NCBI GenBank assembly: GCA_964416985.1
Contig: CAYQFS010000001.1
Coordinates: forward strand, 19,413-83,412
Source: an uncultured Candidatus Saccharibacteria bacterium
GTDB taxonomy: Bacteria; Patescibacteriota; Minisyncoccia; Phycocordibacterales; PALSA-1337
Direction: 5' to 3'
DNA length: 64,000 bases
Position 1 is the stretch's first letter. The number at the start of each line of letters is the position of its first letter. Shown here one piece after another: positions 6,566 to 52,238 of the stretch. The translations under genes were made by a program, and so were the position numbers. The notes beneath the pieces were generated by a model. That model did no database searches, had not been told where the DNA came from, and worked only from the letters and a program-made list of their open reading frames with translations.

Positions 6566-6700
6566 ATGTCATTTACATACCAGCCAAAGAAAAGAAAGAG
6601 AGCAAAGTCCCATGGTTTTCTCGTCCGAACAAAAACAAGCGGAGGGCGCAATGTTATCAAACGCCGCCGAGCTAAAGGTCGCAAGAAGATCTCTGTTTAA
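6566..6700 (+). CDS. rpmH: 50S ribosomal protein L34
   Basis: 44 aa [44 protein letters not shown]; missed by ORF track (below length cutoff; overlapping 62-aa ORF is another frame). Confidence 0.9.
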
Positions 6701-6702
6701 TC

Positions 6703-7038
6703 ATGCTCCCCAGCTCAAAGAGGCTCTCCACCGCTCTCTTTAAAGAAGTTATAACCAAAGGGAAACATCTACATTCCCCTTTGTTTGTCTTGAGGGCTAT
6801 TAAAACCGAGGGTTTGAGCCGTTTTTCAGTATCTGTGCCAAAAAAGGTGGCCAAAACAGCTGTCTTGAGAAACAAACTTCGTCGAAGATTCTATTCAGCA
6901 CTTAATCCCCTGTTTGTTGAGATAAAGCCGGGCATTCATGGTGTTTTTATTGTGAAAGAAACAATACTCAAAGCTCATTTCAAATCCCTTTCAACAGAGC
7001 TTCGTGAATTCTTTGTTAAATCAGGACTTTTGAAGTAG
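6703..7038 (+). CDS. rnpA: RNase P protein component
   Basis: 111 aa basic protein immediately after rpmH, RNKLRRR (RNR-like) motif; canonical rpmH-rnpA-yidC order. Confidence 0.8.
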   Translation: MLPSSKRLSTALFKEVITKGKHLHSPLFVLRAIKTEGLSRFSVSVPKKVAKTAVLRNKLRRRFYSALNPLFVEIKPGIHGVFIVKETILKAHFKSLSTELREFFVKSGLLK

Positions 7039-7048
7039 AATTACCCTT

Positions 7049-7774
7049 ATGTTCGGAACTTTATATCACTCCATAGTTTTCAATCCACTTTATAATGGAC
7101 TTATTTATCTCATGGATGTTTTTCCATGGATGGACGCTGGAATTGCTGTGATTATTTTTACGATCCTTGTTCGTCTTGTCCTTTTTCCTCTCTCAAAAAA
7201 AGCCATTGTTACTCAAGTTCGAATGAAACAACTTGAGCCCCAACTTCGGCACATTAGAGAATCAATGAAGGACGATAAGCAAGCTCAGGCATTAAAGACA
7301 ATGGCATTGTATAAAGAAAAAGGTGTAAGTCCTTTCTCCAGTTTTTTTGTCCTTTTGATTCAACTCCCCATTATCTATGCCCTTTATGCGATTTTTATGA
7401 GATCAGGGCTGCCAGTTGTAAATGAAACCCTTCTCTACTCATTTGTTCAGGTTCCAGTTATCAATATGCATTTTCTAGGGCTTCTTGATATAAGTAAGAG
7501 CAGTGTCTACCTTGCAGTAATTGCTGCCGCAGCTCAATTCTTCCAGCTCCACTTTTCTCTTGCAGCAAATCCAGGACCGGGAGGAGGTGGGGGTCAAATG
7601 GATGCAGCTCTTGCGATGACAAAGAATATGAAATATGTATTTCCTGTCATTATTTTCATAATTTCATACAAAATAGCCGCTGTGGTTGCTATCTACTGGA
7701 CCATCACAAGCCTCTTCACCCTTGCTCAAGAGCTTGTCGTTCGAAGACACCTTGCGCGACACGAACCTCTCTAG
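7049..7774 (+). CDS. yidC: membrane protein insertase YidC/Oxa1 (short form)
   Basis: 241 aa, multiple TM, conserved LxPL/QxP region FPLSKKAIVTQVRMKQLEPQL...; follows rnpA. Confidence 0.85.
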   Translation: MFGTLYHSIVFNPLYNGLIYLMDVFPWMDAGIAVIIFTILVRLVLFPLSKKAIVTQVRMKQLEPQLRHIRESMKDDKQAQALKTMALYKEKGVSPFSSFFVLLIQLPIIYALYAIFMRSGLPVVNETLLYSFVQVPVINMHFLGLLDISKSSVYLAVIAAAAQFFQLHFSLAANPGPGGGGGQMDAALAMTKNMKYVFPVIIFIISYKIAAVVAIYWTITSLFTLAQELVVRRHLARHEPL

Positions 7775-7789
7775 GTTTTTCGCTAGATT

Positions 7790-9055
7790 TTATTGATTGA
7801 GATCAAGTGACCAAAGACTAAGGTCATTTTTGTTTATAAAGTAGAGGAAGTTTTCTTTTGGATCAAGAGTGAGGTTTGTCGCATCGATCAGTCTGTCAGA
7901 GAGGTTTAAAAGGTTTGCAAGGAGATGCACCTCCCCTGTCGCTGTATCGAGATGCCAGAGTTGGTCAACAAATGATACACTCCCTTCATACCAATCATCG
8001 GGGTAGAGACTATTTGGAATTTCTGTTGGTACGGCACAGTAGACTTCGCTCTTGTGAACTGTACTCCAGACGCATTTTTCGGGGAGAGTTTTAAATATCA
8101 CTTCTTTTGTGGTTTTATTTTTGATGTTGTAAAGTGATGTTTTAAAGGTTCGAGACGCACTTGACGAGAAGAGTACCTGCTTTCCATCAGTACTTGTTTT
8201 TGTTGTAAGACCGAGGATTCCACCAAAGATTTTTGTCATTGTTCCGTTTTTAACATCTACAATATATGCGTATCCAGATGAGACTGCGGACGCCTTTGTT
8301 GTAATGATAATAGTATTTTCTTCAGGCCAGGAAACCTGAACCTGTGTGAGAGGTGTATCAAGTACTTTTGTTCTTTTTGATTCATCAAATTGAGAAATAT
8401 AGCCTATACCCCTTCCATTCTCAATATTGAAAGTGAAAACCCGATCCCCTTTTGGTGAAACAGTCACCTCTCTTATGTCTGCTGATAGGAATTTCCCTCT
8501 GATTTCGTATGGAGTTTTATTTACATCGATAGTGCTACTTGCCGTAACAATAACTTTTCGTACTTCTCCATAGAAATTCACCACGGTGTCTGTCCCCTCC
8601 TTTATGTAACGAAGGATAACAGCAGAAAGATTTTTGTTCCAGTAACTCTCATAAATTCGTGGAAGAGTAGTGTTTGAAAGTTTGATGATTGAAGCTTCAT
8701 CAGCACGCGACTCGTAGATGTGTCCTGCTCCACGATCGACGTAACGGATAAGAGTTGTGCTCGCGGTTGTGCTTGCTGACATTCCACCAACCGGAGTAGC
8801 GCTAATAAGTCTTAGAACAGGAAGTTTCTGGACCTCTGTTGGTGGTTGAGAAGCTGTCTCTGTGGTTGTTGAGACATAGTTGGTTGTGTTTGATGGGGGT
8901 GTGACACTACTCCTGTTGAATGGATTAAAGCCACCCGGATTCTCCTCTGTTTCAGTGAATGGTACGGGATTTCCAAGATACGCAAGCCAATAGTACGATC
9001 CCCCGAGGAAGAGAAGGATGAGAAACACTATTAAAAAGAGAAGTTTTTTGGTCAT
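7790..9055 (-). CDS. membrane-anchored hypothetical protein, beta-rich (last gene of T4SS-like operon)
   Basis: N-terminal TM MTKKLLFLIVFLILLFLGG; Ser/Thr-rich linker; long beta-rich C-terminal region; no recognisable catalytic motif. Confidence 0.5.
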   Translation of the reverse strand: MTKKLLFLIVFLILLFLGGSYYWLAYLGNPVPFTETEENPGGFNPFNRSSVTPPSNTTNYVSTTTETASQPPTEVQKLPVLRLISATPVGGMSASTTASTTLIRYVDRGAGHIYESRADEASIIKLSNTTLPRIYESYWNKNLSAVILRYIKEGTDTVVNFYGEVRKVIVTASSTIDVNKTPYEIRGKFLSADIREVTVSPKGDRVFTFNIENGRGIGYISQFDESKRTKVLDTPLTQVQVSWPEENTIIITTKASAVSSGYAYIVDVKNGTMTKIFGGILGLTTKTSTDGKQVLFSSSASRTFKTSLYNIKNKTTKEVIFKTLPEKCVWSTVHKSEVYCAVPTEIPNSLYPDDWYEGSVSFVDQLWHLDTATGEVHLLANLLNLSDRLIDATNLTLDPKENFLYFINKNDLSLWSLDLNQ

Positions 9056-10192
9056 TTATTTTGAAGTTTGAGATGGATTAAGTACCTTTTTGATCATGTC
9101 AACTCTTTTTGCCTTGAGTTCTTCATATTCCTTGAGTAATACAGGGTCGCTTGTATGAAAATTTTCGGGTACTATCTCTGGCTTTGAGTAGACATCCAAA
9201 CTATACTGAAGTCGGTCCCTGTATTGTTGTTTTGTCTTGCTATCTGCTGTTTGGTAGAGGAAGATTTCATGCATAATATCTTCCTGTTCTTTTGTCTGTT
9301 CGACATAATATTCCACCCTACCCTCTAGTTTTTTGGCACCCTCAAGGTCACCGTCATTTTTTAGTTGCTCGACATACCCCCCAGGACCAAGATATTTTTC
9401 TTTAATGAGGCTCAATCCGCCTTGTATTTTCTCGTTTACTTCAGGTTTTAAAGTAGCATCCTTTCCACTAAACGTTGCTGTGTAGTTACTTGCAGTGTTG
9501 GTGTAGTCAAGAATAGTAGAAAAACCGTTGTTTCCAATTCCCTTAGCCGTTGTACGTAGAATTTCTGCATCTCTCGACTTGTAATCTAGTTTAAGTGCAG
9601 CAAGCCTACGTTCATCCTCAGGACTCAAACCACTGGAATTTTTGAGTTTTTCCAATGCATCTATTGATAGCTTAGCCTCATCATTTTTTGACTGCAATTC
9701 TTTTATATTCTTAATATCCTCCATATTAAGAATTTTTATTTCATTTGCAAAACGATTTTGAAAAGCAGTTACATCACTTGTCTTTATCTCAACAGGATCT
9801 ATTCTTGAATTTATCTGCACAAGTCGAGGATCGATCGTCAGGAGAATAAGATATGAAACAAGAGCACCAAGAAGACCGATAATTGCATTCGTGATCCTGC
9901 TTTTACCATCACTTTTTCCAAAAGGAGATTCACTCGTCATGTATTCAAAACCACCCCAGATTATCATAACTATTGCGAGGAAGACAGCCAAAGCAATTGA
10001 GAATTTAAAGACATATTCGATATAGGTGTCAAAGCTTATACAAGTAAGTGTATTTCCACTGAGGCATTGTTTATCCTGGGTAATGCCATTAATATTCGGG
10101 AGAGGTTCGAGAAGAGTGTAGTTGTTCTGAGCATGCACTACCTGTACTGTAAAGATGAGAGCTATTATTATGTAGGGGAATATTTTTTTCAT
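9056..10192 (-). CDS. pilin-like (VirB2/TrbC topology) protein with C-terminal coiled coil
   Basis: Signal peptide, then two hydrophobic helices separated by a short loop (FKFSIALAVFLAIVMIIWGG ... AIIGLLGALVSYLILLTI), then ~250 aa charged coiled coil. Confidence 0.45.
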   Translation of the reverse strand: MKKIFPYIIIALIFTVQVVHAQNNYTLLEPLPNINGITQDKQCLSGNTLTCISFDTYIEYVFKFSIALAVFLAIVMIIWGGFEYMTSESPFGKSDGKSRITNAIIGLLGALVSYLILLTIDPRLVQINSRIDPVEIKTSDVTAFQNRFANEIKILNMEDIKNIKELQSKNDEAKLSIDALEKLKNSSGLSPEDERRLAALKLDYKSRDAEILRTTAKGIGNNGFSTILDYTNTASNYTATFSGKDATLKPEVNEKIQGGLSLIKEKYLGPGGYVEQLKNDGDLEGAKKLEGRVEYYVEQTKEQEDIMHEIFLYQTADSKTKQQYRDRLQYSLDVYSKPEIVPENFHTSDPVLLKEYEELKAKRVDMIKKVLNPSQTSK

Positions 10193-10194
10193 AA

Positions 10195-11208
10195 TTAAAA
10201 TGTTGTTGATTGTTGTTCAGCCAGCTTTTTATTGAAGAAAAGCGTTACAGAAGCCTGCGCTCCCTGAAGGATCTTATCCTGATTTCGTATATCGAGAGAA
10301 AGAAGAGAGCTTCCTTCGGCATCTTCTTTTGTTCTTAAGGTGATACTCTGATTTGTAGAAATATCTGGTTGCTCGAGGTTGTTGATACTCCATGTGTATG
10401 TCAGGGGGCTTTTTCCTCCGACAGAAGAGAAGAAATATGGGGCGGCGAGAATATTAACCTCATCTTTTATGATGGTAAATCGACTGCTGAGGGCTTTATT
10501 GTAGAAGACTCCATACAAAGGATCTTCTTCATAAAGAAGAATCGAAGGATTTCCCGGCTCAAGATTTATAGAAGCCCTTCCCTGCTGGGCGCCATCCTTT
10601 GTTGTGACAATTGCCTCAATGTCGAAGCTCTTCGGAAGAAATTCACTTATCGAAAGTGTTTGTTTCCCAAAACCAGACTGGTCCTGCACAACCTTATCAT
10701 TTACTGTCCATTTGTAAACAAGAGTCTTTGGGTCAATTTCCCTTCCGTTACTTCCTAAAAAGTGAGGAACAGCACTTATTTTTACGAGATTTTGATATGC
10801 GAAGAGAGACTTTCCTTTAAAAAGGGGTGGAGTGTACCCAGAACTTTCCCAGATGAGATCAATATCTGCTGGTTTAAATGTGATAACCTTTCTTACCTCT
10901 TTTCCTTCTGTTGTCATAATAATTGCCGTGACTGTGACATTTTTACCAATCGCTGGAGCTGTTATGTTGATTGAGGTTAGCCCTGTTCCCTGCCCAGTAT
11001 TTTTCCCATCAACTAACCAAACAATAGAAGCCGCGTTGAGGTTCGTATTGTAGCTCTCAACTTTTACCGTGACACTTTGTCCTGCAGATGGGTAGAGTGG
11101 ATCATTTGAAATTTGAACTCCGTCAATTGAATCAGGAATTTGTGCATGAACAAGGAGACTTGTTCCTAGGAAAAGAAAGCAAAGCATGATTTTCAAGCCA
11201 TTTTTCAT
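10195..11208 (-). CDS. secreted beta-rich protein (Ig-like repeats), T4SS-like operon
   Basis: Probable start at internal Met (MKNGLKIMLCFLFLGTSLLVHA signal peptide); repeated ~90-aa beta-rich segments. Confidence 0.45.
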   Translation of the reverse strand: MKNGLKIMLCFLFLGTSLLVHAQIPDSIDGVQISNDPLYPSAGQSVTVKVESYNTNLNAASIVWLVDGKNTGQGTGLTSINITAPAIGKNVTVTAIIMTTEGKEVRKVITFKPADIDLIWESSGYTPPLFKGKSLFAYQNLVKISAVPHFLGSNGREIDPKTLVYKWTVNDKVVQDQSGFGKQTLSISEFLPKSFDIEAIVTTKDGAQQGRASINLEPGNPSILLYEEDPLYGVFYNKALSSRFTIIKDEVNILAAPYFFSSVGGKSPLTYTWSINNLEQPDISTNQSITLRTKEDAEGSSLLSLDIRNQDKILQGAQASVTLFFNKKLAEQQSTTF

Positions 11209-11261
11209 TCCCCCTATTTTACCACGATATTTCATTATTCTGACAAAGAGATTTCCTCAGT

Positions 11262-11687
11262 TTATTCTTGTTTTGCCTGCTCTTCTCGAGAGATTCTCAC
11301 ACCATTTTGGTTTGGAGGCACCCTTTTTACTCGAGGAGGCGTAACACCTGGCTTATTTTTGTTAGGAAAAACCTTTAATCCTGTCTTATCTTCAACCCTA
11401 CTCAATATTAAAATTGCAACCATTGCGGCAATTATTGTAGGCAATTCCTGAACAGCTGGAAAAAGCTCCGCTATAGTTGAGATAATAGCCGGCACAAATC
11501 TTCTCCAATTCACAATTCCTAATCCAAGTTTCCAAAAAACCACACCCATTATCGCCCAAAAGATCCATCCTACAATATCTCCCGCGAGTGGTATGAGTGT
11601 CAGGACATCAGCGATGAAAGCGAGAAAAATCAAAAAGACACCCATTCGTATACTTATCCTGTATTTGGGTTCCTGCTTTTCTTCCAT
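11262..11687 (-). CDS. small polytopic membrane protein
   Basis: 141 aa, 3-4 predicted TM helices, follows VirB4-like gene. Confidence 0.45.
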   Translation of the reverse strand: MEEKQEPKYRISIRMGVFLIFLAFIADVLTLIPLAGDIVGWIFWAIMGVVFWKLGLGIVNWRRFVPAIISTIAELFPAVQELPTIIAAMVAILILSRVEDKTGLKVFPNKNKPGVTPPRVKRVPPNQNGVRISREEQAKQE

Positions 11688-11693
11688 ACCCCT

Positions 11694-13523
11694 CTATTTT
11701 ACCATGCTTGCTTGGCCGCTGGTTTCGAGATCTTGTTTTGCCTGCTTGATTGCAAGAACCTGAGCTGGATTTGTGGTGATGATCTGGTCCTCTGTGTATG
11801 ACGCAACAATCTTGAGGGCGACGTGCTTTAGACCGACGAAGAATATTCCCTCCCCAACATCTGACTCGAGAAGAAGATATTTTTCCTCATCAGTGAGGTT
11901 GAATGTTCTCTGGATATTGTCGATCGAAGATGGAGATTGTTTTAGAAGAATTTGAATTGAAGAGTTTGTGATAATCGGCAGTCCATATGGTGACTTGAGG
12001 AAATCGTCAACATCCTGGGTAATTGTTGCAAGACCAAGATAATATTTTCTTCCTCGTTTTGCCAAACCAAGTAGGAATGAAGCCGTATCTTCTGATTTCA
12101 TCATCCACCATGCCTCGTCGATCACGAGCAGTCGTTTCTTGAGCTGTTTTCGGATAGCGTTCCATATATAGTGTGTGACGATATACATTGCCACCGGCTT
12201 GAGCTCGTCTTCCATGTCTCGAAGCGAGAAAACTACGAATTTTTTGTTGATATCGACGTTTGAAGGGCGATTAATGAAGCCTGACCACGTTCCTTTTGTG
12301 TATTTTGTAAGACGTTCCACGAGGGAATCAGCTCCCTGCATCCCGGCAAGTACAAGTTCGAAATCCGAAAGAAGTGGTGGCTCAACATTCCTAAAGTCGG
12401 ATTCGGGAGTGATGTCCTTCAGGGCGTATGTTTCGGTTATAGCTCGGTCAATGATTGCATCTTCTTCCTGTGTAAGTCCTCCAAGCATAATTCGGAAAAG
12501 TCCAACGAGGTTAATGATGTTTGAGCGGAGAATATCAGCTGCACTCTCATCTTCACGGGGGATTGGAAGGTCAAAAGGGTTTATGTGATGCTCTGAGTTG
12601 AGGGAAATGTTGAAGTACTTCCCTCCTGTTGCTTCGGCCATGTATTCATATTCTTTTTCTGGGTCAATGACGATGACATCTGTATCAAACATTAGGGTTC
12701 TAAGAATTTCGAGCTTTGTGCAGTATGATTTTCCGGCTCCGGCCTTTGCAAATGTCACAGAGTTGTAATTTTCGAGCAGGAATCGATCAAAAAGAACAAG
12801 TGAAGAGTTGTGGCGATTGATTCCGTAGAGAATTCCTTTGTCAGACGTAAGATCAAACGAGGTAAATGGGAAAAGTGATGAAAGTGGAGAGGAATTGAGC
12901 TTTGAATGAACTGCTAGTTCGTCATTTGCAATAGGGAGAACGCTTCGGTAGCCACTCTCCTGTTGGAAAAGGGCAGGCTTTAGATACACAAGCTTTGATT
13001 CAAGGATTGATTTGATTTCTGACTCAGTCTTGTCGAGCTCGGCGCTTGAGTCACCATATATAGTAATGTAGACGCCAACATCAAATATTTTCTCCTGAGC
13101 TTGCATGAGATTGTCCCGAAGGGCTTCGAGGTCCTGGTAAGCAGTATCGAGCATTGGATCACGGACAAGACCCTTGTCTTCCCTCTGTGAAATTTGACTT
13201 TGAACCTCAGCTACTTTCTTCTGGAAGTGTCGAAGGATCTTTGCGGTGTCTACTGGATGAATGAAAATAGAAATATTAAAAATTTTGTCGAGGTTTACGA
13301 TTGGAGAGAACCAGCTTTCACTCAAAAATCGAGGATATGAGATGACAAAGAAGGTTCGAGCCACCTTTTCTCCGAGGTTCAATTCTTTTGGGCTGATTTT
13401 CAAAGCCGAAGGAGCAATGACATCCTTGAGTTCAAGGACGCCTGCCTCATAAATCTCCTGAGGCATGAGCGATGTCACTGGAGAAACCTCTTTTTTGCCT
13501 AGTAATTTTCCAAAAAATGACAT
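11694..13523 (-). CDS. VirB4/TrbE/CagE-family T4SS ATPase
   Basis: 609 aa; N-terminal DVIAPSALKISPKELNLGEKVARTFFVISYPRFL...GW-like VirB4 motif; Walker A AKAGAGKSY; Walker B LLVIDEAWWMM (DEAW). Confidence 0.85.
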   Translation of the reverse strand: MSFFGKLLGKKEVSPVTSLMPQEIYEAGVLELKDVIAPSALKISPKELNLGEKVARTFFVISYPRFLSESWFSPIVNLDKIFNISIFIHPVDTAKILRHFQKKVAEVQSQISQREDKGLVRDPMLDTAYQDLEALRDNLMQAQEKIFDVGVYITIYGDSSAELDKTESEIKSILESKLVYLKPALFQQESGYRSVLPIANDELAVHSKLNSSPLSSLFPFTSFDLTSDKGILYGINRHNSSLVLFDRFLLENYNSVTFAKAGAGKSYCTKLEILRTLMFDTDVIVIDPEKEYEYMAEATGGKYFNISLNSEHHINPFDLPIPREDESAADILRSNIINLVGLFRIMLGGLTQEEDAIIDRAITETYALKDITPESDFRNVEPPLLSDFELVLAGMQGADSLVERLTKYTKGTWSGFINRPSNVDINKKFVVFSLRDMEDELKPVAMYIVTHYIWNAIRKQLKKRLLVIDEAWWMMKSEDTASFLLGLAKRGRKYYLGLATITQDVDDFLKSPYGLPIITNSSIQILLKQSPSSIDNIQRTFNLTDEEKYLLLESDVGEGIFFVGLKHVALKIVASYTEDQIITTNPAQVLAIKQAKQDLETSGQASMVK

Positions 13524-13524
13524 A

Positions 13525-14157
13525 TTAATTTATTTGAATAGGTTTTTCTGACTCCCCAGGATTAAATATCTTGTAGTACAATTCTACCACCTCCTCCGTA
13601 CCAAGTTCAGCCACCCTCACTCCACAACGCACAAGTCCTTGCTCGACAACCCCCACCCTTTGCTCGAGCTGACTTCTGTACTCGGCAAATTTTTCATTTT
13701 CAATGATTCGGCTCTCGTCTTTTTTATTGACGAGATTGCTAATTGGGTTTTTACTTGCAGTCATTGCTGGAGGAGTATATGGCACAATAATGAAGAAACT
13801 TTTTGTCATGATATTTGAATTCTCGACGAATGTCTTAATGAATTCAATGTATTCCCTTGTCTGAATCTTCATAAGTTCAGTCATTTGTTCTTTGTAACGT
13901 TCCTCAAGAAGGGCTATGTATGGCCGTATATCAAGTCTTTTTGATTGAACAAATATCTGAACAGAAAAATCAAGAGAATTTAGAAAATTTTGGAACTGGT
14001 AGATGATTGAGTTTTGTTCATCGGCAGATTTGAGGGCAAAGTTCAATGAAGAAGCGAGAACAAGAGCCCTCATTGAGCCATCTTTGAGAATAACAATTCC
14101 ATCACGAATTTCCCTTATCGGTACAAAGTCCTGAGTTGTTTTTGAACTTGTTGCCAT
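13525..14157 (-). CDS. T4SS-associated hypothetical protein upstream of VirB4
   Basis: 210 aa soluble; PIREIRDGIVILKDGSMRALVLASSLNFALKSADEQ motif resembles N-terminal region of Gram-positive-type T4SS proteins; 2-nt gap to VirB4. Confidence 0.4.
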   Translation of the reverse strand: MATSSKTTQDFVPIREIRDGIVILKDGSMRALVLASSLNFALKSADEQNSIIYQFQNFLNSLDFSVQIFVQSKRLDIRPYIALLEERYKEQMTELMKIQTREYIEFIKTFVENSNIMTKSFFIIVPYTPPAMTASKNPISNLVNKKDESRIIENEKFAEYRSQLEQRVGVVEQGLVRCGVRVAELGTEEVVELYYKIFNPGESEKPIQIN

Positions 14158-14159
14158 AA

Positions 14160-14585
14160 TTATCTTTGGTTTTTATTTGTGTACATGCTCTCCTTTATGT
14201 CGAGACTCCACGTGAGGTCCTTGAGTTTGCTATCAGAAATCTTTGGGACCATGATTGATGCGTACTGTTTTGCCTCCTGCTCCGGTGTCACCACCTTTTC
14301 TTTTTCCGCTTTCTTCCATATGTAGAGTTTGCTGGAGAAAAAATACTTGAAGGCTGCTTCCATTACAAAAATAAACGGTTTGTTGTTTATTTTGTAGAAT
14401 GCGAGAGCTGCTGACAATGTCATTACAATAACAATTGGTATAAATGACAGCACGATCGAGTCCAAAAGCCTATATACAGCAAATGATAGACCTGCGCCTC
14501 CCGCAAGATAAATGAACTGCTTGAGGGTCAAGGGTCCAAATATCTTGTCTTCAACTTCGATGAACTGTGGGACTTGAAAACGCAT
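14160..14585 (-). CDS. small 2-TM protein (VirB3-like position)
   Basis: 141 aa, two TM helices, encoded immediately upstream of the VirB4 pair as VirB3 homologues are. Confidence 0.35.
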   Translation of the reverse strand: MRFQVPQFIEVEDKIFGPLTLKQFIYLAGGAGLSFAVYRLLDSIVLSFIPIVIVMTLSAALAFYKINNKPFIFVMEAAFKYFFSSKLYIWKKAEKEKVVTPEQEAKQYASIMVPKISDSKLKDLTWSLDIKESMYTNKNQR

Positions 14586-14600
14586 GTGTTCATTATAGCA

Positions 14601-15320
14601 TTATTCAATCGGCTCCCGATAAGGATCCACCGAGGTCTTCCCCGCTGGCTGTACCGGAGGCTTTGGGGAAGTTGGTGCTGGGGGTGTTTGGGGATTTGGT
14701 GGTATTGCAATTGGCCCAGGGCTTTGAGGTTTTGGTGCATTTGGTGCAGCTATTTCATTTGCACTTGAGACTGGATTTGCAAGGAGGTGGTCGACGATAG
14801 AAACCCTTGGTGTTGTTGGTGGATTTTCAATTCCATCAAGTATCTGGGCCTTATTTAGACTTGAATTGTTGTATTGAGGAGAAGTTGAAACAGGTTTATC
14901 CTTAACAATCTCAAAGTTCCCAGCTTTTTCGAGGGGGGTGAGAGGGCGGCTTGGAGGTATAGGCACTGTATTTTGCTCCAAAGTAATTTCTTCCTGTACT
15001 TTTCTAATTGATTCTCGAAGCGGCATAAAAATCTCTTCGTTTATATCTTTAACAATTTTTTCAGAAATTTCCTTGTCAATCTCGAGGTCTCTAGCTACTG
15101 TATCAATAAATTTGACTGATGGTAGTTTTCCTATAAGTACCATTCGGGTATCTACTTCGAGCTGCCCTATTTGGTCAAGGAGTAAATTATAACGCGCACC
15201 AATGCTCTCTAATTTCGAGTATACACTCGAAGATTTTATTGCCTCAAGTATTTCTTTTGGGATTGTTGTTTCGGTTGGTTTCATTTTTTTATTTTGTCCA
15301 TCTATCTCTATTTCGACCAT
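14601..15320 (-). CDS. proline-rich hypothetical protein
   Basis: 239 aa; C-terminus PQSPGPIAIPPNPQTPPAPTSPKPPVQP low-complexity. Confidence 0.45.
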   Translation of the reverse strand: MVEIEIDGQNKKMKPTETTIPKEILEAIKSSSVYSKLESIGARYNLLLDQIGQLEVDTRMVLIGKLPSVKFIDTVARDLEIDKEISEKIVKDINEEIFMPLRESIRKVQEEITLEQNTVPIPPSRPLTPLEKAGNFEIVKDKPVSTSPQYNNSSLNKAQILDGIENPPTTPRVSIVDHLLANPVSSANEIAAPNAPKPQSPGPIAIPPNPQTPPAPTSPKPPVQPAGKTSVDPYREPIE

Positions 15321-17232
15321 CGTTCATATATCCGTAAGCCTTGTGCTCTGTCGTCGGAGGTAGGTTGCTGATGCGGTTACCAATAGCCCTTCTGGTTGGT
15401 GCGTCAATCAGGTCTTCCATTTCTTTGAGTTGTGCCGGTGTCATGTAATCGATAACATCATTATTCTGAAGGTGGGTTGGATCAACCTTCGACAATTCCT
15501 TACCCGAAAGATTCTTCATATGCTTCTCGATGACTGTCGGTTGTCCAGAACTGAATACTAGGGATAGTCCTTCCTTTCTCGCTGTTTTAAACTTTTCCTT
15601 ATCTATTTCTGAGAGAGCATCGCCGTCAACTAAGCCTTCTGCTTGCTTAGAAGAAAGCGTAGCAGCAAATTGCGTGTTCGTAAGAGTTTTTAGAGGAACA
15701 TCCTCGAGTTCTTTCTTGGTCATTTTTCCTACAGCATCATAATAAGTCTTGAGTTGCTCAGGTGTAGTAGGTAAGTTATTGAGAATTGGTTTAAGGGCCT
15801 CTGTTCTTGATCGTTCTCTCTGTACTCCTGAAATGACTCTCGCGCGATCCTTATCCTCCCTCTCAACATCACCAAAACTCTGTTTGCCACCATATTTTGA
15901 TTTTTCGACACTCGTTAACCCTCCTCTTACTGCTTGGCTAATGCCTAGGTTTCTTAACACAGTTGTAGCAGCTCTTCCCGTTTTGCTTCCTTGTGCGGCT
16001 GCAGCCATATTGTCGAACCCTTTTCCTGCTAGTTTACCAAGTCGTCCAGCAGTATTTCTTCCAACCACTCCCCCTACCTTACCCCTCACCCAATCCTTTG
16101 CTACGTTTGCCATTCCTGCTCCGTGGCCCCCGAGCTGAAGTGCGGCAACAAGAGGGACATTTATAAAGACAAATGCAATAATGAATTGAAAAATAAGTCC
16201 TGCATCAGCAACGACCACCGCACCAATTGTTGAACCAGCCTTTGCTGCTGCAAGTTGTGCAGTGTCGAGAGCGTCAAAGAATCCTCCATTGCTTAGGAAT
16301 TTGAGAGCCACATACATGAAGAAAAGGTACGCAGGCATGAAAACAAGTTGGGGCACAAAATAATCCATGAACTTGCTCGTCATTTTTTGGTCAACTTTTG
16401 GGAAGATCATCCCTACAAAATACAGTGGAGAGAATCCCATGATGAGAAGGAGAATGACAATACGAATAATGAAGGCGAACCCTGCAAACAAGAAGCTAAG
16501 AGCTGCTGTGAGCATGAGTATCGAGCCTCCAATAGTTGAGACTGCGACTAGAAATGTTCCATTTGCAGTAGCGAGGATTCCTCCCTTGTTATATACCTTA
16601 GGTATTTTGAGGCTTTGCTGAAAGACGTCAGAGATACCTCCTTGTTTGAATGAATTTGTTAAAACCGTACCAATATCCCCTTTGGATAGATCTACATTTT
16701 GAGAATTAGGAGCGATTGCCCTGTAGAATTGGAGAGAAACGAGATTCGAAGCGTCAATAAGAATACGAGTGAAGAAAAGGCTAAAGTTAATGAGTATTCC
16801 AGCGAAAAATATCTTAACGACAAGAGATCCAAATTGAGGACCCTTTGTTCCAAGGATTGTGTTAATTGAGGCATATATGAGAGCAAAGATAATGAAGATG
16901 CTCGAAATGTTTCGTATGACAATCCACGTCTGTTCAATTGCCGGAGTTGCTTCGTAGAGTGCCTTTATATTAAGTGTGAGAACTATCGAAGCGTTAAGGA
17001 TAATTCCGGCAAGAGAAATGGCGTATGACATGAACTGGAGCACCCAGTTTCCGAGTTGGGAGAAAAGACTATCAAAAATTGATATAGTAGCACATTGAGC
17101 AAGACTATCTTGACTGAATATGAGCCACCACGAACAATCAGCTGCCGCTTGGGCAACATGAGGAATACTAGCAACTCCTCCCACCAGGAGGACAAGTGTT
17201 ATCGATAGGATTGTTGCTAATTTTCTGTTCAT
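15289..17232 (-). CDS. polytopic membrane protein, VirB6/TrbL-like
   Basis: 647 aa; signal/TM then >=6 TM helices, Gly-rich segment, ~280-aa hydrophilic C-terminal tail; architecture typical of VirB6/TrbL. Confidence 0.5.
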   Translation of the reverse strand: MNRKLATILSITLVLLVGGVASIPHVAQAAADCSWWLIFSQDSLAQCATISIFDSLFSQLGNWVLQFMSYAISLAGIILNASIVLTLNIKALYEATPAIEQTWIVIRNISSIFIIFALIYASINTILGTKGPQFGSLVVKIFFAGILINFSLFFTRILIDASNLVSLQFYRAIAPNSQNVDLSKGDIGTVLTNSFKQGGISDVFQQSLKIPKVYNKGGILATANGTFLVAVSTIGGSILMLTAALSFLFAGFAFIIRIVILLLIMGFSPLYFVGMIFPKVDQKMTSKFMDYFVPQLVFMPAYLFFMYVALKFLSNGGFFDALDTAQLAAAKAGSTIGAVVVADAGLIFQFIIAFVFINVPLVAALQLGGHGAGMANVAKDWVRGKVGGVVGRNTAGRLGKLAGKGFDNMAAAAQGSKTGRAATTVLRNLGISQAVRGGLTSVEKSKYGGKQSFGDVEREDKDRARVISGVQRERSRTEALKPILNNLPTTPEQLKTYYDAVGKMTKKELEDVPLKTLTNTQFAATLSSKQAEGLVDGDALSEIDKEKFKTARKEGLSLVFSSGQPTVIEKHMKNLSGKELSKVDPTHLQNNDVIDYMTPAQLKEMEDLIDAPTRRAIGNRISNLPPTTEHKAYGYMNDGRNRDRWTK

Positions 17233-17238
17233 GTAATG

Positions 17239-18846
17239 CTAATAGTAGAAAGTTGAAAACAATGTGCACTGCTGCAGCTTTCTCTGGGCATCTGCTTTTG
17301 CGCTATCCATGTCCTCTTTTACTTTATCCAATGCTTTCTGAGATTCTGAAACCTTGAGTGGAGATATAAGCGACTGACTCTGAAGCAATCTGCTATATTT
17401 TTCACTTGGCGCCCGAAGGTCGTTCACTGTTTTTGCAACGGTGGTGCTTGCTTGAATATCTGTAAGAGTCTTGAGTTGTGTAGTAGCATCCGCTGTTTCT
17501 GCAAGGAGGGTGTTTGCAACTGGTGTGATTCTTGTAGCGACTTCTCGAGCAATATCATCGAGTCCAGATTGAGCCATGGCTTTTCGGTATCCATCAGATG
17601 AGAAATCTATCAATTTCTGGTTGTAACATGCTGTCGCTGTGTCGTATGCTTGTTTTGCACTGACAACTATCGCGAGGGCAGCATCTTTATTCTGCTTGTA
17701 TTGTTTTGCGTTATCGATGTTCGTTTGGAGGTTAGGAAGCATTTGCTCAGTTATCTTTCCTGCCCCCTCAGGACTTTCTTGTATTATTTGGTTGATGTAT
17801 GCATTTGAATCTCCAGCACCGCCTCCACTGATTGCCCCAAGTCCTTGAGAAAGAACCTGTGTTACGAGTTGCGCAAAGAGGGCGTTTACAATTTCGTTAA
17901 GTTCATCCGCTAGTTCAAGTTGACGAATCGGACTTCCAAGGTTTGATTCAAGGGCTCCTGCGATAACGGAGCCAGGTGTTTGGACTTCACATTTTTCTTC
18001 TGCCACATAACCTTCCCCCGATCCTTCGTATGATCTTTCTGGTCCATTATATGTTCCTTCTCCGGATCCCTCACTTGGTCTTTCTTCTGAATTTTCATTG
18101 CCGGTTTTGGTACATTTTCTCCACGAGAGAAAACCTTTTCCTTGATTTAGCTCCTCTCTTCTCTGGATCTGGACGTTTGCTACTCGAAGAGAGAGTTCTG
18201 TATCAGCTTGGATCCATGCCCCGTACACATTGTTTTGTGGTTCTGTGGTCATAGAAACGAAAGCAGGCCAGCCACCCTGTCTGAAATCTCCAGCAGTGAA
18301 GCCGTTAATACTTGAATTTTTAACAGCATTTGTAGTGTTTGTAATGATAGTTCCTAAAGTACAAGCATACCTTTGTCCACTATTCGGATGATATTTAAAA
18401 GCGAGCGCAATTCGGAGATCGATACTGAATGGAGAACAGAGATTTGTGAGTGGTCCTCCGTACTGAGAGAGAAAACGCCCAGTTTCCTGGTCTGCAAGAT
18501 CGAGAAAGAAGGAGCTTGGATTTGTTACAAATGAAGGACTTCCTTGAAAGCCAGAATTGATCCAGTTGACAACACTCTGGGTTATTTGTCGGACGATTTG
18601 TTTTGCAAACATTCCCGCAATTCCGTCGAGGACAAATTCCTTGAGATTGTCAGAATACGCATTAAATGCGAGCTGTGTCGTGTTTGTTGCGATGATGATT
18701 TGCTGAACCAAAGACGCTCCGACTTCTACAACTGCATATTGTGCTTCGACTTTATGTGGTATTGAGAGTGACAATGAAAGGAGTGACCCGATCAGGAGTG
18801 TTACTACAAGAAGCGAACTAATTATTTTTGTAATCTTTTGTTTCAT
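17239..18846 (-). CDS. secreted hypothetical protein
   Basis: 535 aa; N-terminal signal/TM MKQKITKIISSLLVVTLLIGSLLSL; no catalytic motif recognised. Confidence 0.45.
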   Translation of the reverse strand: MKQKITKIISSLLVVTLLIGSLLSLSLSIPHKVEAQYAVVEVGASLVQQIIIATNTTQLAFNAYSDNLKEFVLDGIAGMFAKQIVRQITQSVVNWINSGFQGSPSFVTNPSSFFLDLADQETGRFLSQYGGPLTNLCSPFSIDLRIALAFKYHPNSGQRYACTLGTIITNTTNAVKNSSINGFTAGDFRQGGWPAFVSMTTEPQNNVYGAWIQADTELSLRVANVQIQRREELNQGKGFLSWRKCTKTGNENSEERPSEGSGEGTYNGPERSYEGSGEGYVAEEKCEVQTPGSVIAGALESNLGSPIRQLELADELNEIVNALFAQLVTQVLSQGLGAISGGGAGDSNAYINQIIQESPEGAGKITEQMLPNLQTNIDNAKQYKQNKDAALAIVVSAKQAYDTATACYNQKLIDFSSDGYRKAMAQSGLDDIAREVATRITPVANTLLAETADATTQLKTLTDIQASTTVAKTVNDLRAPSEKYSRLLQSQSLISPLKVSESQKALDKVKEDMDSAKADAQRKLQQCTLFSTFYY

Positions 18847-18847
18847 A

Positions 18848-19825
18848 TTATTGGTGTGTCATAAAAAATATACCCCCTTCATTTTGTTGATATTGAATTC
18901 CCATCAAACTGATTTTTTGCCTGACAGATAGGAAAGCGTCAAAAAGTTTTCGAGCCCCTTCGAGGTATTGGCTTGTTGCTTGCAATCCAAGGACCGGGTC
19001 AGCTCCCGATTTTCTAAATGATTGAGCCACAAACAAGGAGATCTTCATCCCATTTATTAAATCGAGGTGAGTCTGAGAAAGTGACGCAGGGGTTTCAATT
19101 GTAGTAAGTCCGTTCACAATATTTTGGTATGTGGTGATGATGGGGTCGAGTTCTTTGAGAATATCCAAATCTTCTTTCTCGAGGGCTTCCTTAGCAATTA
19201 CAGCCTCATTTCTTCCATTTATTGGATACTTGAGAAAAAGATTTCCAACATCATTCCCATATTGTCTGATAGATGTGGCGCTATCGTCTTTGCGAGTTTT
19301 TACTGAACTTAAGTTGTAAAGTTTTGGTGCACTAAGGACAATTCCACTTTTTGTGACAACCTGCTGCGCTACTTCTATCTGGCTCTGAGGATCCTGGGAA
19401 AGACCCGCTTGGCGGAGTTCCATGTAGCGGGCAAAAAAGTCTCTAGCAAGAAGGTCGGTCGGAGTGAGGTCTTCTGTGGGAGTTTTTGAAGATGAAGTTT
19501 CACTCATTTTGTCCTTGGGACCTTTGACGAGAGGGTTTCTTCCGGTAGTACTTTCCTTTCCGTCGGATGTGCCGTCACCATCAGTATCTGCTTTGTGTGG
19601 ATCAGTACCGAGGAGAACTTCTTCCCAGTCTCTGAGACCATCAGAATCGCTGTCGACGCTCTGTAGGTCGGGAGAAAGAGCTGGGGTTGAGGTCGAAACG
19701 AGGGGTGCTTCGTAGACTATGTTTTCATCCTGTTTGTTGCGATACTCTGCGACAAAAAATGCTCCACTGATAAGGGCAGCTGCGGCAAGAATCAAAACGA
19801 TATTTTTGAGGCTTGGGGACTTCAT
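18848..19825 (-). CDS. secreted protein with thrombospondin-type-3-like Ca-binding repeats (first gene of operon)
   Basis: N-terminal TM; DSDSDGLRDWEEVLLGTDPHKADTDGDGTSDGKE (DxDxDG repeats). Confidence 0.5.
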   Translation of the reverse strand: MKSPSLKNIVLILAAAALISGAFFVAEYRNKQDENIVYEAPLVSTSTPALSPDLQSVDSDSDGLRDWEEVLLGTDPHKADTDGDGTSDGKESTTGRNPLVKGPKDKMSETSSSKTPTEDLTPTDLLARDFFARYMELRQAGLSQDPQSQIEVAQQVVTKSGIVLSAPKLYNLSSVKTRKDDSATSIRQYGNDVGNLFLKYPINGRNEAVIAKEALEKEDLDILKELDPIITTYQNIVNGLTTIETPASLSQTHLDLINGMKISLFVAQSFRKSGADPVLGLQATSQYLEGARKLFDAFLSVRQKISLMGIQYQQNEGGIFFMTHQ

Positions 19826-19901
19826 TTATAATTTCGGGTAGTACTCGAAATGCTCCCCTAATTATAGCAAGATATGAAGCCTAATCCTACGTATTTTCGG
19901 C

Positions 19902-20747
19902 TTATTTCTGTGGAAAACAGACAATCTTCTTCCATTGTTCAAGAGAAAGCTCTTCCGCGCGCACCTGAGCCGGCCATTTTTCTTGTTCCCACAGGTTTTT
20001 GAGTACTTCTGGGGCCATTTTTTCCTTCAAATTGCCCATAAGTACCTTTCGTTTGTGAGAAAAGCCGGTTTTTACAAGGTCAAAGAAGTTTTTTTCATCA
20101 ATATTTGATTCGGTGAAGAAGTTTTTTGAGATATTTTCAATGAGAAGAACTGCGGAGTCGACGTTTGGCACAGGGCGGAAAAATTTTCGAGGGACTGACG
20201 TGATAAATTTTGGATTTCCATAAGCTTTGACTGAAATTGAAAGAATACTTTCCTTAGAATCGGTAATTCTTCTCGTCAGTTCCTTCTGAAGCATGACAAC
20301 AATCCGCATTGGTTGAATTTCTGATTCGAGAAATTTTCTCAAAAATTCCCCGCTGATGTAGTACGGGATATTTGCCACGATACTGTACTCCCCTTTTTTG
20401 AGACCAAGGATTGCTGGCTCAATTTCCAAAATATCCCCATGGATTAATTTCAATTTTCCTGTTTTGAGTTCTCGAGAGAACTTTTCAGAGAGAAATGGAA
20501 TGGCACGGTCGTCTTTTTCAATCGCAATGACCTGGGCTCCAGCCTCAAGAAGACCATGAGTGAGAGCTCCTTTTCCTGGACCAACTTCAACAACAACATC
20601 ATCACGAAGAATTCGCGCAGCATGGATCATGGCTCCGATTACGTGAGGTGCATGGAGAAAATTCTGCCCCAAAGATTTTTTCGCGACGAAATTATTTTTG
20701 GATTCAGTTGTGATTTCTTCTGATTCAGAAAATATCTCAGGTTCCAT
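19902..20747 (-). CDS. rsmA: 16S rRNA (adenine1518/1519-N6)-dimethyltransferase
   Basis: 281 aa; SAM motif VVEVGPGKGALT; KsgA family layout. Confidence 0.9.
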   Translation of the reverse strand: MEPEIFSESEEITTESKNNFVAKKSLGQNFLHAPHVIGAMIHAARILRDDVVVEVGPGKGALTHGLLEAGAQVIAIEKDDRAIPFLSEKFSRELKTGKLKLIHGDILEIEPAILGLKKGEYSIVANIPYYISGEFLRKFLESEIQPMRIVVMLQKELTRRITDSKESILSISVKAYGNPKFITSVPRKFFRPVPNVDSAVLLIENISKNFFTESNIDEKNFFDLVKTGFSHKRKVLMGNLKEKMAPEVLKNLWEQEKWPAQVRAEELSLEQWKKIVCFPQK

Positions 20748-20756
20748 GGTGTATAA

Positions 20757-22709
20757 TTAAAAATCAATAAAGATTGCCTTGACCCCTCTCGCTTCTTCGT
20801 CACCCTTTGATTCTATAAGATCATTGCCAATATCGGAAATGAATTCAGAAGGAAGATTTACTTTTTGTGCTCCATAAATTGTGCGAAGTTGAGCATAGCT
20901 TAAGAAAACTTTTTTCCGAGCACGTGTGAGTGCGACATAAAAAAGTCGTCTCTCTTCTTCTGCTTCCGATTGACTCATGTCACCTTCATTCAATTTTTGG
21001 TGAGGAAAAAGATCCTGTTCAAGGCCAGCAATAAAAACATAATCATACTCAAGTCCTTTTGATGCGTGGACCGTCATAAGCTTCACTGCATCATGATCTT
21101 TTTCAAGCTCATCCTGATCAGTTGCAAGTGCTGCATTTGAGAGAAGGGATTCGATCGCCTCCTCGCCCTGGAGATGATCATACTGAGCCGCAACCGTGGC
21201 CAATTCCCTCAGGTTTTCGAGCTTTTCTTGTTCCTCAGGTGAACCATTTTTATAGACAGATTCCATGCCTGTTTCTCTTAAAATATATTTAATGAGGTCG
21301 GAAGGTTTTTGGGTGAGAGCAACTTCTTTTATTCGATCGAGAAGAGACAAAAACTGATCAACTTTTCCACGTAGTCCTGGCCCGAGAATGTTCTGTTGCC
21401 CCGCGATAACTTTGAGCATAGTGGCCTTCCCAATTCCCCGTGGAGGAACATTTATAATTCGAATCATGTCAGATGAACTTTCACGATTGAGAGACGCTTT
21501 GATGAATGAAAGAGCGTCTTTAATTTCTTTTCTTTCAAAAAATCTTACACCAAGAACCTGGTACGGAATATTTTTCTTTATAAAAGCATCTTCAAGAACT
21601 CGTGATTGAAAGTTTGCTCGATACAGGACGCAGATTTCTCGCGGGTGTGTTCCCTCAGAGATGAGGTCCCGGGCTTTTTCTGAAATCATGCGCGCTTCTT
21701 CGTTTTCGGTGTACGAAATGATAAGTTCAATCTTCTCCCCTGCCCCATTTTGGGTAAAAAGATTTTTTTCTCGGCGCATGACATTCTTTTTGATAATGGT
21801 GTTTGCCGCCATAAGAATTGTCTGTGTCGAGCGATAATTTTCCTCAAGAGTAATTATTTTTGCTTCAGGATATTCCTTTTCAAAATTCAAAATGTTTTGA
21901 ATGTCCGCGCCTCTCCAGCTGTAAATGTTTTGGTCAATGTCTCCGACCACGCAAATGTTACGGTGTTCTTCTGAAAGCATGGTTGCAATTTCATACTGAA
22001 CCCGATTTGTATCTTGATACTCATCAATATGAATATATTTCCAGATCGAGTTGTATTTTTTTCTAATTTCCGGATATGTTCGCAAAAGTACTGCTGTTCG
22101 CAAGAGAAGATCATCAAAGTCGAGAGATTTTTCCTTTGCCAGAGCCTTCTCATATTTTTCCCAGACACTCAAAATTATTTTTTGATAGTATTCTTTCGCT
22201 TTCTCACGATATGCCGAAAGTGTGACTCCGTCCCCTTTTTCTCTTGAGATCGCATTCAAGAGAGCACCTGGTTCAAACTGCTTTGGATCGAGTCCAAGCT
22301 CCTCGAGAGCATCTTTGACGGCTCTTTTTGAATCGCCTCTGTCATAAATCGTAAAATGTCTTGGAAGCCCGACCAAAATGCTGTTTTCTTTGATGATATG
22401 AACTCCAAGAGCATGAAATGTGCTTACAAATGGCCGTTCTGCCCTCCCTTCGCCCAAAGAAACTGGAAAATTGAGACTTTTATCGCTTTCAATGAGATGA
22501 AAGACCCTCTCCCTCATTTCTTTGGCGGCTTTGTTGGTAAAGGTGATGGCGAGGATACTCGAAGGAGCTATCCCATTCTTTATGAGGTTCAATATGCGAT
22601 GGGTTAGGGTTTTTGTTTTTCCAGCTCCCGCTCCAGCGAGGATGAGAAGGGGTCCTTTGATGGTTTCCACTGCATCTTTTTGTCGCTGATTGAGTCCTTC
22701 GGTAGTCAT
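20757..22709 (-). CDS. pcrA: UvrD/PcrA-type ATP-dependent DNA helicase
   Basis: 650 aa; Walker A AGAGAGKTKTL; helicase motifs II (DEYQD) etc. Confidence 0.9.
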   Translation of the reverse strand: MTTEGLNQRQKDAVETIKGPLLILAGAGAGKTKTLTHRILNLIKNGIAPSSILAITFTNKAAKEMRERVFHLIESDKSLNFPVSLGEGRAERPFVSTFHALGVHIIKENSILVGLPRHFTIYDRGDSKRAVKDALEELGLDPKQFEPGALLNAISREKGDGVTLSAYREKAKEYYQKIILSVWEKYEKALAKEKSLDFDDLLLRTAVLLRTYPEIRKKYNSIWKYIHIDEYQDTNRVQYEIATMLSEEHRNICVVGDIDQNIYSWRGADIQNILNFEKEYPEAKIITLEENYRSTQTILMAANTIIKKNVMRREKNLFTQNGAGEKIELIISYTENEEARMISEKARDLISEGTHPREICVLYRANFQSRVLEDAFIKKNIPYQVLGVRFFERKEIKDALSFIKASLNRESSSDMIRIINVPPRGIGKATMLKVIAGQQNILGPGLRGKVDQFLSLLDRIKEVALTQKPSDLIKYILRETGMESVYKNGSPEEQEKLENLRELATVAAQYDHLQGEEAIESLLSNAALATDQDELEKDHDAVKLMTVHASKGLEYDYVFIAGLEQDLFPHQKLNEGDMSQSEAEEERRLFYVALTRARKKVFLSYAQLRTIYGAQKVNLPSEFISDIGNDLIESKGDEEARGVKAIFIDF

Positions 22710-51008: not shown

Positions 51009-51014
51009 ATTTTT

Positions 51015-52235: not shown

Positions 52236-52238
52236 ATC

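Follow-up and report, generated by a model that had tools for sequence, protein, structure and literature searches.

An eleven-gene type IV secretion operon beside dnaA in a genome of the Patescibacteria

Gene content of the operon

We analysed a 64-kb stretch of contig CAYQFS010000001.1 (assembly GCA_964416985.1; the whole stretch is hereafter the window), in which an operon encoding a type IV secretion system (T4SS) lies beside dnaA. Eleven co-directional open reading frames (ORFs), g1 to g11, fill exactly positions 7790-19825 of the minus strand, with transcription running downwards from 19825 (Table 1, in transcription order). The intergenic distances from g1 to g11 are 1, 6, -32, 15, 2, 1, 6, 26, 2 and 0 nt; an earlier note, made from the DNA letters alone, had described eleven co-directional genes with spacers of 0-50 nt, a layout that was borne out with measured values of -32 to +26 nt. 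The sole overlap, between g3 and g4, becomes a gap of about 4 nt if g4 begins at its second Met, at 15284. For comparison, one genome per species was scanned, yielding 80 related loci (L001-L080) whose VirB4 is 77-97% identical to that of the window; 42 of them are full-length with full flanks, and the medians and slot counts given below use these 42.

The motor of the system is encoded by g7, which scored 369 bits against the NCBIfam model conju_CD1110 (cutoff 325), aligning to model positions 185-732 of 752. It further matched Pfam P-loop_TraG (E 2.6e-26), AAA_10 and, below the cutoff of that model, TIGR00929 VirB4_CagE (E 8.4e-36), while its second-best model was the VirB4 family of a Mycoplasma integrative and conjugative element (ICE), Mbov_0397. 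Both a Walker A motif (AKAGAGKS, residues 259-266, nt 12726-12749) and a Walker B motif (LLVIDE, residues 465-470, nt 12114-12131) are present. The preceding gene, g6, matched the N-terminal parts of five VirB4/TrbE models (Mbov_0397 positions 99-233, E 4.9e-11; CD1110 positions 2-119) and, over nearly its full length, the TrsD/TraD model NF041427 (E 5.6e-7, 29.6 bits against a curated cutoff of 200), all of these matches sitting below the curated cutoffs. Since the alignment of g7 to the CD1110 model starts only at position 185 and g6 supplies the N-terminal domain, VirB4 is a two-gene protein here, composed of a TrsD-like N-domain (g6) and the ATPase proper (g7), and this split is kept in all 42 full-length loci. 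The ATPase identity that the earlier note had proposed for the 609-residue protein thus stands, except that about 185 N-terminal residues of VirB4 lie in a separate gene of 210 codons.

Searched against a large protein collection, g7 matched at least 8000 clusters (90% identity) with E ≤ 1e-10. Among these, the 120 best that were listed are all at least 91% identical to g7, and the taxon names given for them are all Patescibacteria, Paceibacterota or Taylorbacteria. It is because of the names on these close homologues and on the related loci that we assign the system to the class Paceibacteria. Many loci with a VirB4 80-97% identical to that of the window are titled 'uncultured Candidatus Saccharibacteria', and others just as close bear the names Parcubacteria, Paceibacterota, Taylorbacteria or Zambryskibacteria; on the related, bulk-submitted metagenome-assembled genomes the name Saccharibacteria looks wrong, and we treated it as unreliable.

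Two further genes encode candidate parts of a membrane channel. The product of g5 matched PrgI (PF12666; E 4.2e-11, 43.7 bits, cutoff 27), and the gene is present in 42/42 loci. The earlier note had wondered whether the neighbours of VirB4 might be VirB3- or VirB8-like: g5, upstream of the TrsD-like g6, answers to VirB3/PrgI, whereas nothing VirB8-like could be identified in the operon. The g3 protein begins with a signal or transmembrane (TM) segment, followed by about six TM segments and a hydrophilic C-terminal region of about 270 residues, a topology that fits the 'extended VirB6' type, with several TM segments and a big hydrophilic tail (PMC12857230). While g3 of the window itself matched nothing in Pfam or NCBIfam, and a PDB search with its profile returned nothing credible, five of the 42 syntenic orthologues match Pfam TrbL/VirB6 (best E 6e-5), which supports the earlier assignment of this 647-residue protein to VirB6/TrbL. 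The g3 alignment also contains an invariant NFS...D..N motif.

The pilin candidate is g10, whose product carries a signal peptide, TM helices at residues ~61-79 and ~100-118, and then a charged, helical C-terminal extension of about 255 residues. Its match to PF18895 is a narrow pass (27.1 bits, cutoff 26.6), and it scored 25.6 bits against the NCBIfam Mbov_0395 pilin-like model, below the cutoff of 40. All 42 g10 orthologues match PF18895 (best E 2.2e-11), one of them also matching TrbC/VirB2, in line with the earlier description of a VirB2-like pilin with a long helical extension. Conservation is confined to the N-terminal third, i.e., the signal peptide and the two-helix pilin domain, and orthologue lengths range from 140 to 615 residues. 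The small membrane protein g8 is fast-evolving: tblastn matches were obtained in only 6/42 loci, yet the slot holds an ORF in 36/42, and most of these ORFs share the topology of g8 and have a near-invariant Asp in TM1, so that slot and topology persist in most relatives. A Pfam scan of all g8 orthologues returned no family. The idea of g8 as a second pilin was rejected, hhalign against the g10 profile giving a probability of 1%.

Of the remaining five proteins, g1 consists of a TM-like segment (residues 8-26), two bacterial TSP3 (Ca-binding) repeats (TSP3_bac, E 6.6e-10, 39 bits, cutoff 25) and a mostly helical C-terminal domain, with a relative in 36/42 loci at a median identity of 28%. In g2, a signal peptide or N-terminal anchor is followed by a conserved N-terminal domain that contains Cys and the motif WINSGFxGxPxF, and the C-terminal part is a helical bundle. 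No Pfam family matched g2 of the window; DUF4141 (PF13605) is, however, precomputed on many of its homologues, and one orthologue matches it at 1.3e-5. DUF4141 is found in conjugative-transposon proteins of Bacteroides. Some g2 orthologues have added discoidin or Ig domains. An AlphaFold2 (AF2) model of g2 built with 60 homologues (mean pLDDT, the predicted local distance difference test, 66) is confident only at residues ~355-530, the C-terminal helical bundle; a Foldseek search of this model against the PDB returned generic helical bundles only, none at E ≤ 0.001, and its profile found nothing credible among PDB sequences. With neither a confident model of the N-terminal domain nor a Foldseek relative, a VirB5-like or other assignment of g2 cannot be made.

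The g9 alignment contains three recurring 'Y.W..NG' segments, and among 37 orthologues there are weak matches to BiPBP_C (4), PKD (2) and Ig (2), so that g9, present in 42/42 loci at 33% identity, looks like three beta-sandwich repeats. The g11 protein has an N-terminal TM anchor and a disordered Ser/Thr-rich linker ahead of a predicted propeller. In its AF2 model (mean pLDDT 86, predicted template modelling score 0.77) residues 80-420 are all-beta, and Foldseek against the PDB placed TolB on top (E 1.4e-10), followed by other propellers; g11 is present in 42/42 loci, at 34% identity over 95% of its length.

Finally, g4 comprises a helical domain of about 110 residues and a Pro-rich linker, and at its C-terminal end, 7-8 residues before the stop, lies a near-invariant DPYRE(P) motif (nt 14613-14627, minus strand). 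DPYRE occurs once per locus in 61 of the 80 related loci, and wherever the order of genes was checkable it lay in the g4 slot; the window has no second copy. In the wider g4 family (2285 representatives at E ≤ 1e-3), the motif lies within 12 residues of the C-terminus in 103 of the best 150 representatives, whereas the Pro-rich linker ahead of it is not conserved. Neither g4 nor its orthologues matched a Pfam family, and a PDB sequence search with the g4 profile was without match. To judge by this pattern, DPYRE resembles a tethered docking or recognition peptide. The earlier note had regarded the proteins beyond VirB4, VirB6 and the pilin as secreted or membrane proteins without known domains, a description that has to be amended for g5 (PrgI/VirB3), for g1 (TSP3) and for g4, which has neither signal peptide nor TM segment.

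Conservation, missing parts and genomic context

The surroundings of the operon proved constant: yidC-dnaA adjoins it in 42/42 full-length loci, and the complete series uvrD-ksgA-g1...g11-yidC-rnpA-dnaA-dnaN-pbp1 is seen in most of these. Relative to the window, median identity is 82% for VirB4 (g7), 65% for TrsD (g6), 60% for DnaA, 58% for PrgI (g5) and 55% for DnaN, and lies at 28-38% for g1, g2, g3, g9, g10 and g11; VirB4 is conserved above DnaA in 51/51 loci compared. These figures suggest that the constraint on VirB4 is unusually strong for a secretion ATPase, and point to strong purifying selection on the motor (VirB4, TrsD and PrgI being the most constrained) and to fast evolution of the pilin extension and the surface proteins. 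Because the flanking gene order is constant in 42/42 loci and VirB4 is conserved above DnaA, the locus is core, vertically inherited machinery and not an ICE, which strengthens the case that the earlier note had made against a conjugative element.

Pfam scans of the window's larger ORFs (110 residues and above, within the 64 kb) found no VirD4-type coupling protein (type IV coupling protein, T4CP), VirB11 or relaxase, as the earlier note had claimed. What these scans did recover outside the operon were housekeeping genes, the type IV pilus cluster, ComEC and ComM. The only T2SSE ATPase in the window carries an MshEN domain and has PilC as its neighbour, and is therefore PilB, not VirB11. The earlier claim that an integrase is lacking needs qualification, since the window does hold one tyrosine recombinase; it is of Xer type, sits next to genes for an NYN-domain protein (27371-28000) and exonuclease III (29424-30218), and is set apart from the operon by 8.6 kb that include ksgA, uvrD, the M23 peptidase gene, comM and further ORFs. 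The LysM/M23 peptidase, the cell-wall hydrolase nearest to the operon, was detected in just 7/42 related loci and is therefore probably not a dedicated VirB1 substitute. Rfam found four tRNAs only, at 32.9-35.1 kb, and the GC content of the operon (0.40-0.43) is similar to that of the adjacent sequence, with no composition shift.

The origin-side location stated in the earlier note is confirmed by dnaN, dnaA, rpmH, rnpA and yidC, which adjoin the operon. Clusters of DnaA-box-like 9-mers occur in the dnaN-dnaA and dnaA-rpmH spacers; across the window there are 25 such boxes against 15.4 ± 4.4 expected, a marginal enrichment not clearly above chance, and GC skew across the 64 kb gave no decisive signal marking an origin. 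A candidate promoter with the extended -10 element TGCTATAAT, read directly from the sequence, lies in the 76-nt ksgA-g1 spacer (19826-19901), where it is followed in the leader by a short inverted repeat (ATTTCG...CGAAAT) just ahead of the g1 start codon; no Shine-Dalgarno-like sequence was seen in this spacer near the g1 ATG. A two-hexamer promoter scan missed TGCTATAAT, and the number of such sites was no higher than chance. Promoter and terminator scans alike gave about the same site counts as shuffled sequence, and the operon boundaries are not defined by them.

Elsewhere in the window, a type IV pilus cluster includes three large pseudopilin-like ORFs; in the first of them an N-terminal methylation motif is accompanied by a CarboxypepD_reg domain. 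An ORF with a SAVED sensor domain had no recognised partner cyclase or effector nearby; SAVED domains usually belong to cyclic-oligonucleotide-based antiphage signalling (CBASS) or CRISPR-associated signalling. For a reduced genome, the membrane-bound H+-translocating pyrophosphatase is noteworthy as an enzyme of energy coupling.

Table 1. Operon genes g1 to g11 in transcription order, followed by other features of the window.
Feature	Length (aa)	Position	Strand	Assignment	Basis or context
g1	325	18848..19825	-	surface accessory protein	Pfam TSP3_bac
g2	535	17239..18846	-	DUF4141-related secreted protein	homologue annotations
g3	647	15289..17232	-	extended VirB6-like polytopic membrane protein	TM profile, orthologue TrbL matches
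g4	239 (probably 227, from 15284)	14601..15320	-	predicted cytoplasmic protein	no TM segment or signal peptide
g5	141	14160..14585	-	PrgI family (VirB3 equivalent of monoderm T4SSs)	Pfam PrgI PF12666
g6	210	13525..14157	-	TrsD-like; VirB4 N-terminal domain as its own gene	VirB4/TrbE and TrsD/TraD models
g7	609	11694..13523	-	VirB4 ATPase, middle and C-terminal domains	NCBIfam conju_CD1110, Pfam P-loop_TraG
g8	141	11262..11687	-	small membrane protein, 3-4 TM segments, basic Pro-rich C-terminal tail	TM profile
g9	346	10195..11235	-	secreted protein, apparently of tandem beta-sandwich (Ig-like) repeats	signal-like N-terminus, alignment
g10	378	9056..10192	-	VirB2-like T4SS pilin	Pfam T4SS_pilin PF18895
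g11	421	7790..9055	-	membrane-anchored extracytoplasmic beta-propeller	AF2 and Foldseek
candidate operon promoter		19861-19869	-	extended -10 TGCTATAAT	ksgA-g1 spacer
dnaN		3731-4837	-		origin side of operon
dnaA		5097-6443	-		origin side of operon
rpmH		6566-6700	+		origin side of operon
rnpA		6703-7038	+		origin side of operon
yidC		7049-7774	+		adjoins g11 end, convergent with operon
ksgA/rsmA		19902-20747	-		upstream of g1, same direction as operon
uvrD		20757-22709	-	UvrD/PcrA helicase	beyond ksgA, same direction as operon
LysM + M23 peptidase		22986-24077	+	cell-wall hydrolase	divergent from uvrD
comM		24092-25621	-	ComM-like Mg-chelatase ATPase	same window as T4SS and type IV pilus genes
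tyrosine recombinase		28446-29408	+	Xer-type	SAM-like N-domain and catalytic domain; only recombinase in window
SAVED sensor domain ORF	181	37265-37810	+		PF18145, E 1.1e-7
H+-translocating pyrophosphatase		44582-46564	-	membrane-bound	909 bits
type IV pilus cluster		49263-56139	+	PilB with MshEN (49263-51008), PilC/T2SSF (51015-52235), pseudopilin-like ORFs	
comEC		61518-62867	+	ComEC	Competence and DUF4131 domains

Relation to known systems

In a survey of 3,035 Patescibacteria genomes, Quiñonero-Coronel et al. (2025, Microb Genom; PMC12102498) described a monophyletic Patescibacteria VirB4 clade nested in the monoderm mating-pair formation (MPF) class FATA, with TrsD as the commonest associated component and PrgI/VirB3, VirB6 and VirB2-like pilins near virB4. 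Relaxases were found in 103 genomes only, T4CPs were mostly distant from virB4, the nearest relative of 99.3% of the VirB4s belonged to the same class, and in Paceibacteria the T4SS lay close to dnaA, dnaN, rnpA, ksgA and rpmH. The operon shares with that Paceibacteria system a VirB4 with TrsD beside it, PrgI/VirB3 and a VirB2-like pilin, as well as, within the scanned window, the missing relaxase and nearby T4CP, and the position beside dnaA, dnaN, rnpA, ksgA and rpmH; its VirB4 is probably FATA-related, to judge by the best models, and g3 is a candidate VirB6. Nothing essential differs. In the legend to Fig. 6 of the survey, genes without a match in NCBIfam, Pfam-A or TIGRFAM are grey; tentative identities for such genes are given here with g11, g2 and g4.

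Using transposon sequencing (Tn-seq) in Southlakia epibionticum (Saccharimonadia), Wang et al. (2023, Cell; PMC10633639) showed that epibiotic growth requires the T4SS and its pilins as essential components, and noted that this T4SS lacks a coupling protein and a relaxase. That system (strain ML1, SEML1_0006-0019) is likewise of monoderm type and includes pilin gene(s); neither a relaxase nor a coupling protein can be recognised in its cluster, and its locus tags suggest a place at the chromosome start. It differs in its array of six divergent pilins and in the peptidase/lysozyme genes that follow downstream of virB4, where the operon described here has one long-tailed pilin and no hydrolase.

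More distantly, the monoderm MPF-FATA systems (Trs of pGO1/pSK41, Prg/Pcf of pCF10, Clostridioides CTn2, i.e., the CD1110 family, and the Mycoplasma ICE with Mbov_0395/0397) are the source of the best VirB4 models. PrgI/VirB3 is common to them and the operon, the pGO1 subclass also has a separate TrsD gene, and g10 resembles Mbov_0395. Unlike the operon, however, the conjugative MPF-FATA systems are mobile. They possess a relaxase and a T4CP, neither found among the window's larger ORFs, together with VirB8-like proteins and a VirB1-like hydrolase, neither recognised in the operon, and they are generally without a VirB2-type pilus, whereas a VirB2-like pilin is encoded here. ComB of Helicobacter pylori and the archaeal Ced system are also T4SS-derived, with VirB4 as the sole T4SS ATPase and no relaxase. 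ComB, however, has a diderm VirB7/9/10 core and Ced uses CedA/CedB, the similarity to the operon being confined to the VirB4 P-loop (CedB, 34 bits), and no homologues of ComB6-10 or of the CedA partner were seen.

Both the system and its lack of a relaxase, as well as its location beside dnaA, have already been published (PMC12102498, PMC10633639); the earlier note's finding and interpretation agree with the literature in nearly every respect, and the finding is correct but not new. What is added is modest: the fixed eleven-gene order in most of 42 species, the ranking of VirB4 above DnaA, the g11 propeller, the link of g2 to DUF4141 and the DPYRE tail of g4.

Interpretation and alternative readings

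The best-supported reading of the locus is that of a VirB4-only, pilus-forming T4SS of monoderm type for host contact or transfer, and of the identity of the system we are highly confident. It is, very probably, the chromosomal, vertically inherited T4SS of Paceibacteria (Parcubacteria), carrying the VirB4 of the Patescibacteria-specific clade and descended from the conjugation machinery of monoderm MPF-FATA systems. On the observed gene content, homologies, synteny and conservation, we infer how the machine may be assembled, that it forms a pilus, what g4 may do and what may be its substrate. A membrane translocon would consist of g3, the extended VirB6-like protein, and g5, the VirB3/PrgI protein. 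It would be powered by the two-gene VirB4 (the g6 N-domain with the g7 ATPase), which would also drive the steps by which the single VirB2-like pilin, g10, is extracted and polymerised. If g10 has the topology usual for VirB2, its variable C-terminal extension would decorate the exterior of the filament. The Ca-binding repeats of g1, the DUF4141-like g2, the Ig-like repeats of g9 and the anchored propeller g11 may form or decorate the wall-spanning and surface part, and g4 would be a cytoplasmic factor docking through its C-terminal DPYRE peptide. The machine would not be conjugative; most likely it serves contact with a host cell and transfer of macromolecules to or from it. This function is inferred, by us as by the earlier note, which had favoured a dedicated host-interaction or secretion machine, and the literature reads the system likewise (PMC12102498, PMC10633639, PMC12857230).

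Several points weigh against this account. The TrsD match of g6 and the Mbov_0395 match of g10 fall under curated cutoffs, the assignment of g3 to VirB6 is indirect, and the N-terminal domain of g2 lies beyond the reach of modelling. The docking role of DPYRE and the formation of a pilus are conjecture. Neither a VirB8-like (NTF2-fold) protein nor a VirB1-like hydrolase was recognised by Pfam or NCBIfam among the 11 operon proteins; a divergent VirB8 fold is conceivable in g1 or g9, g11 being a propeller by its model. A T4CP may sit elsewhere in the genome, as the majority of Patescibacteria genomes have VirD4 homologues, which usually lie at a distance from virB4 (PMC12102498). Moreover, essentiality of the T4SS is known from one Saccharibacterium only, whose cluster differs (six pilins, hydrolases; PMC10633639).

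A bolder version of the host-contact reading, which we hold to be conceivable though rather doubtful, supposes that parts specific to Paceibacteria replace the coupling protein and the wall-spanning parts: g4 would be an adaptor or substrate docking by DPYRE on the split VirB4, joined by g11, g2 and the decorated g10, and the resulting VirB4-only conduit would take material from the host. Because VirB4 is more conserved than DnaA, such a conduit would be as indispensable as the replication proteins.

The locus could instead encode a pilus and nothing more, a decorated VirB2-like filament driven by VirB4 for adhesion or host recognition, with no substrate passing through a channel. The single pilin with its large, fast-evolving extracellular extension (140-615 residues among orthologues), the variable discoidin and Ig adhesion domains on g2 orthologues and, within the scanned window, the lack of a coupling protein for substrate recruitment would all suit such an organelle, and the extreme conservation of VirB4 is compatible with this and with transfer alike. 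We nevertheless regard it as unlikely, as a type IV pilus system for adhesion is already encoded in the window, and as a mere filament would hardly account for an extended VirB6-like channel protein or for the cytoplasmic g4, whose docking-type motif is conserved.

Still more improbable, in our estimate, is a DNA-uptake T4SS for competence, like ComB of Helicobacter or the archaeal Ced, whose imported environmental or host DNA would be passed to the cytoplasm by ComEC. As in ComB, VirB4 here lacks a nearby T4CP, VirB11 and relaxase; ComEC, ComM, RecJ and the type IV pilus cluster are encoded in the same window, and DNA import would benefit nucleotide-auxotrophic CPR (candidate phyla radiation) bacteria. 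The match to CedB, however, is weak (34 bits against a cutoff of 700) and restricted to the P-loop region, nor did the operon show a DNA-binding component. In S. epibionticum, moreover, comEC is dispensable, its deletion abolishing competence but not viability (2025 FEMS review; PMC12857230), which separates the essentiality of the T4SS from competence, the latter depending on the type IV pilus (PMC12857230, PMC10633639); in one Saccharibacterium the T4SS genes are reported to stay essential when comEC is mutated.

That the operon is an ICE, remnant or active, lying near the origin by chance has next to no probability and is largely refuted by synteny: although VirB4, PrgI, TrsD and the pilin-like protein are homologous to proteins of monoderm conjugative plasmids and ICEs and a tyrosine recombinase lies in the window, that enzyme is of Xer type and distant, the window's larger ORFs include no relaxase or T4CP, composition does not shift, the tRNA genes lie elsewhere, the flanking gene order is the same in all 42 full-length loci, VirB4 outranks DnaA in conservation, and VirB4s have their nearest relatives within their own class in 99.3% of cases (PMC12102498).

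The window thus offers a clean and complete example of the Paceibacteria T4SS rather than a new kind of system, and yields leads on genes hitherto unannotated, above all the cytoplasmic g4 with its DPYRE tail and the TolB-like propeller g11. A large part of bacterial diversity belongs to the Patescibacteria, which seem to live on other cells and must obtain what they are unable to make. The T4SS is one of few candidate machines for that exchange, and is essential in the single species tested.

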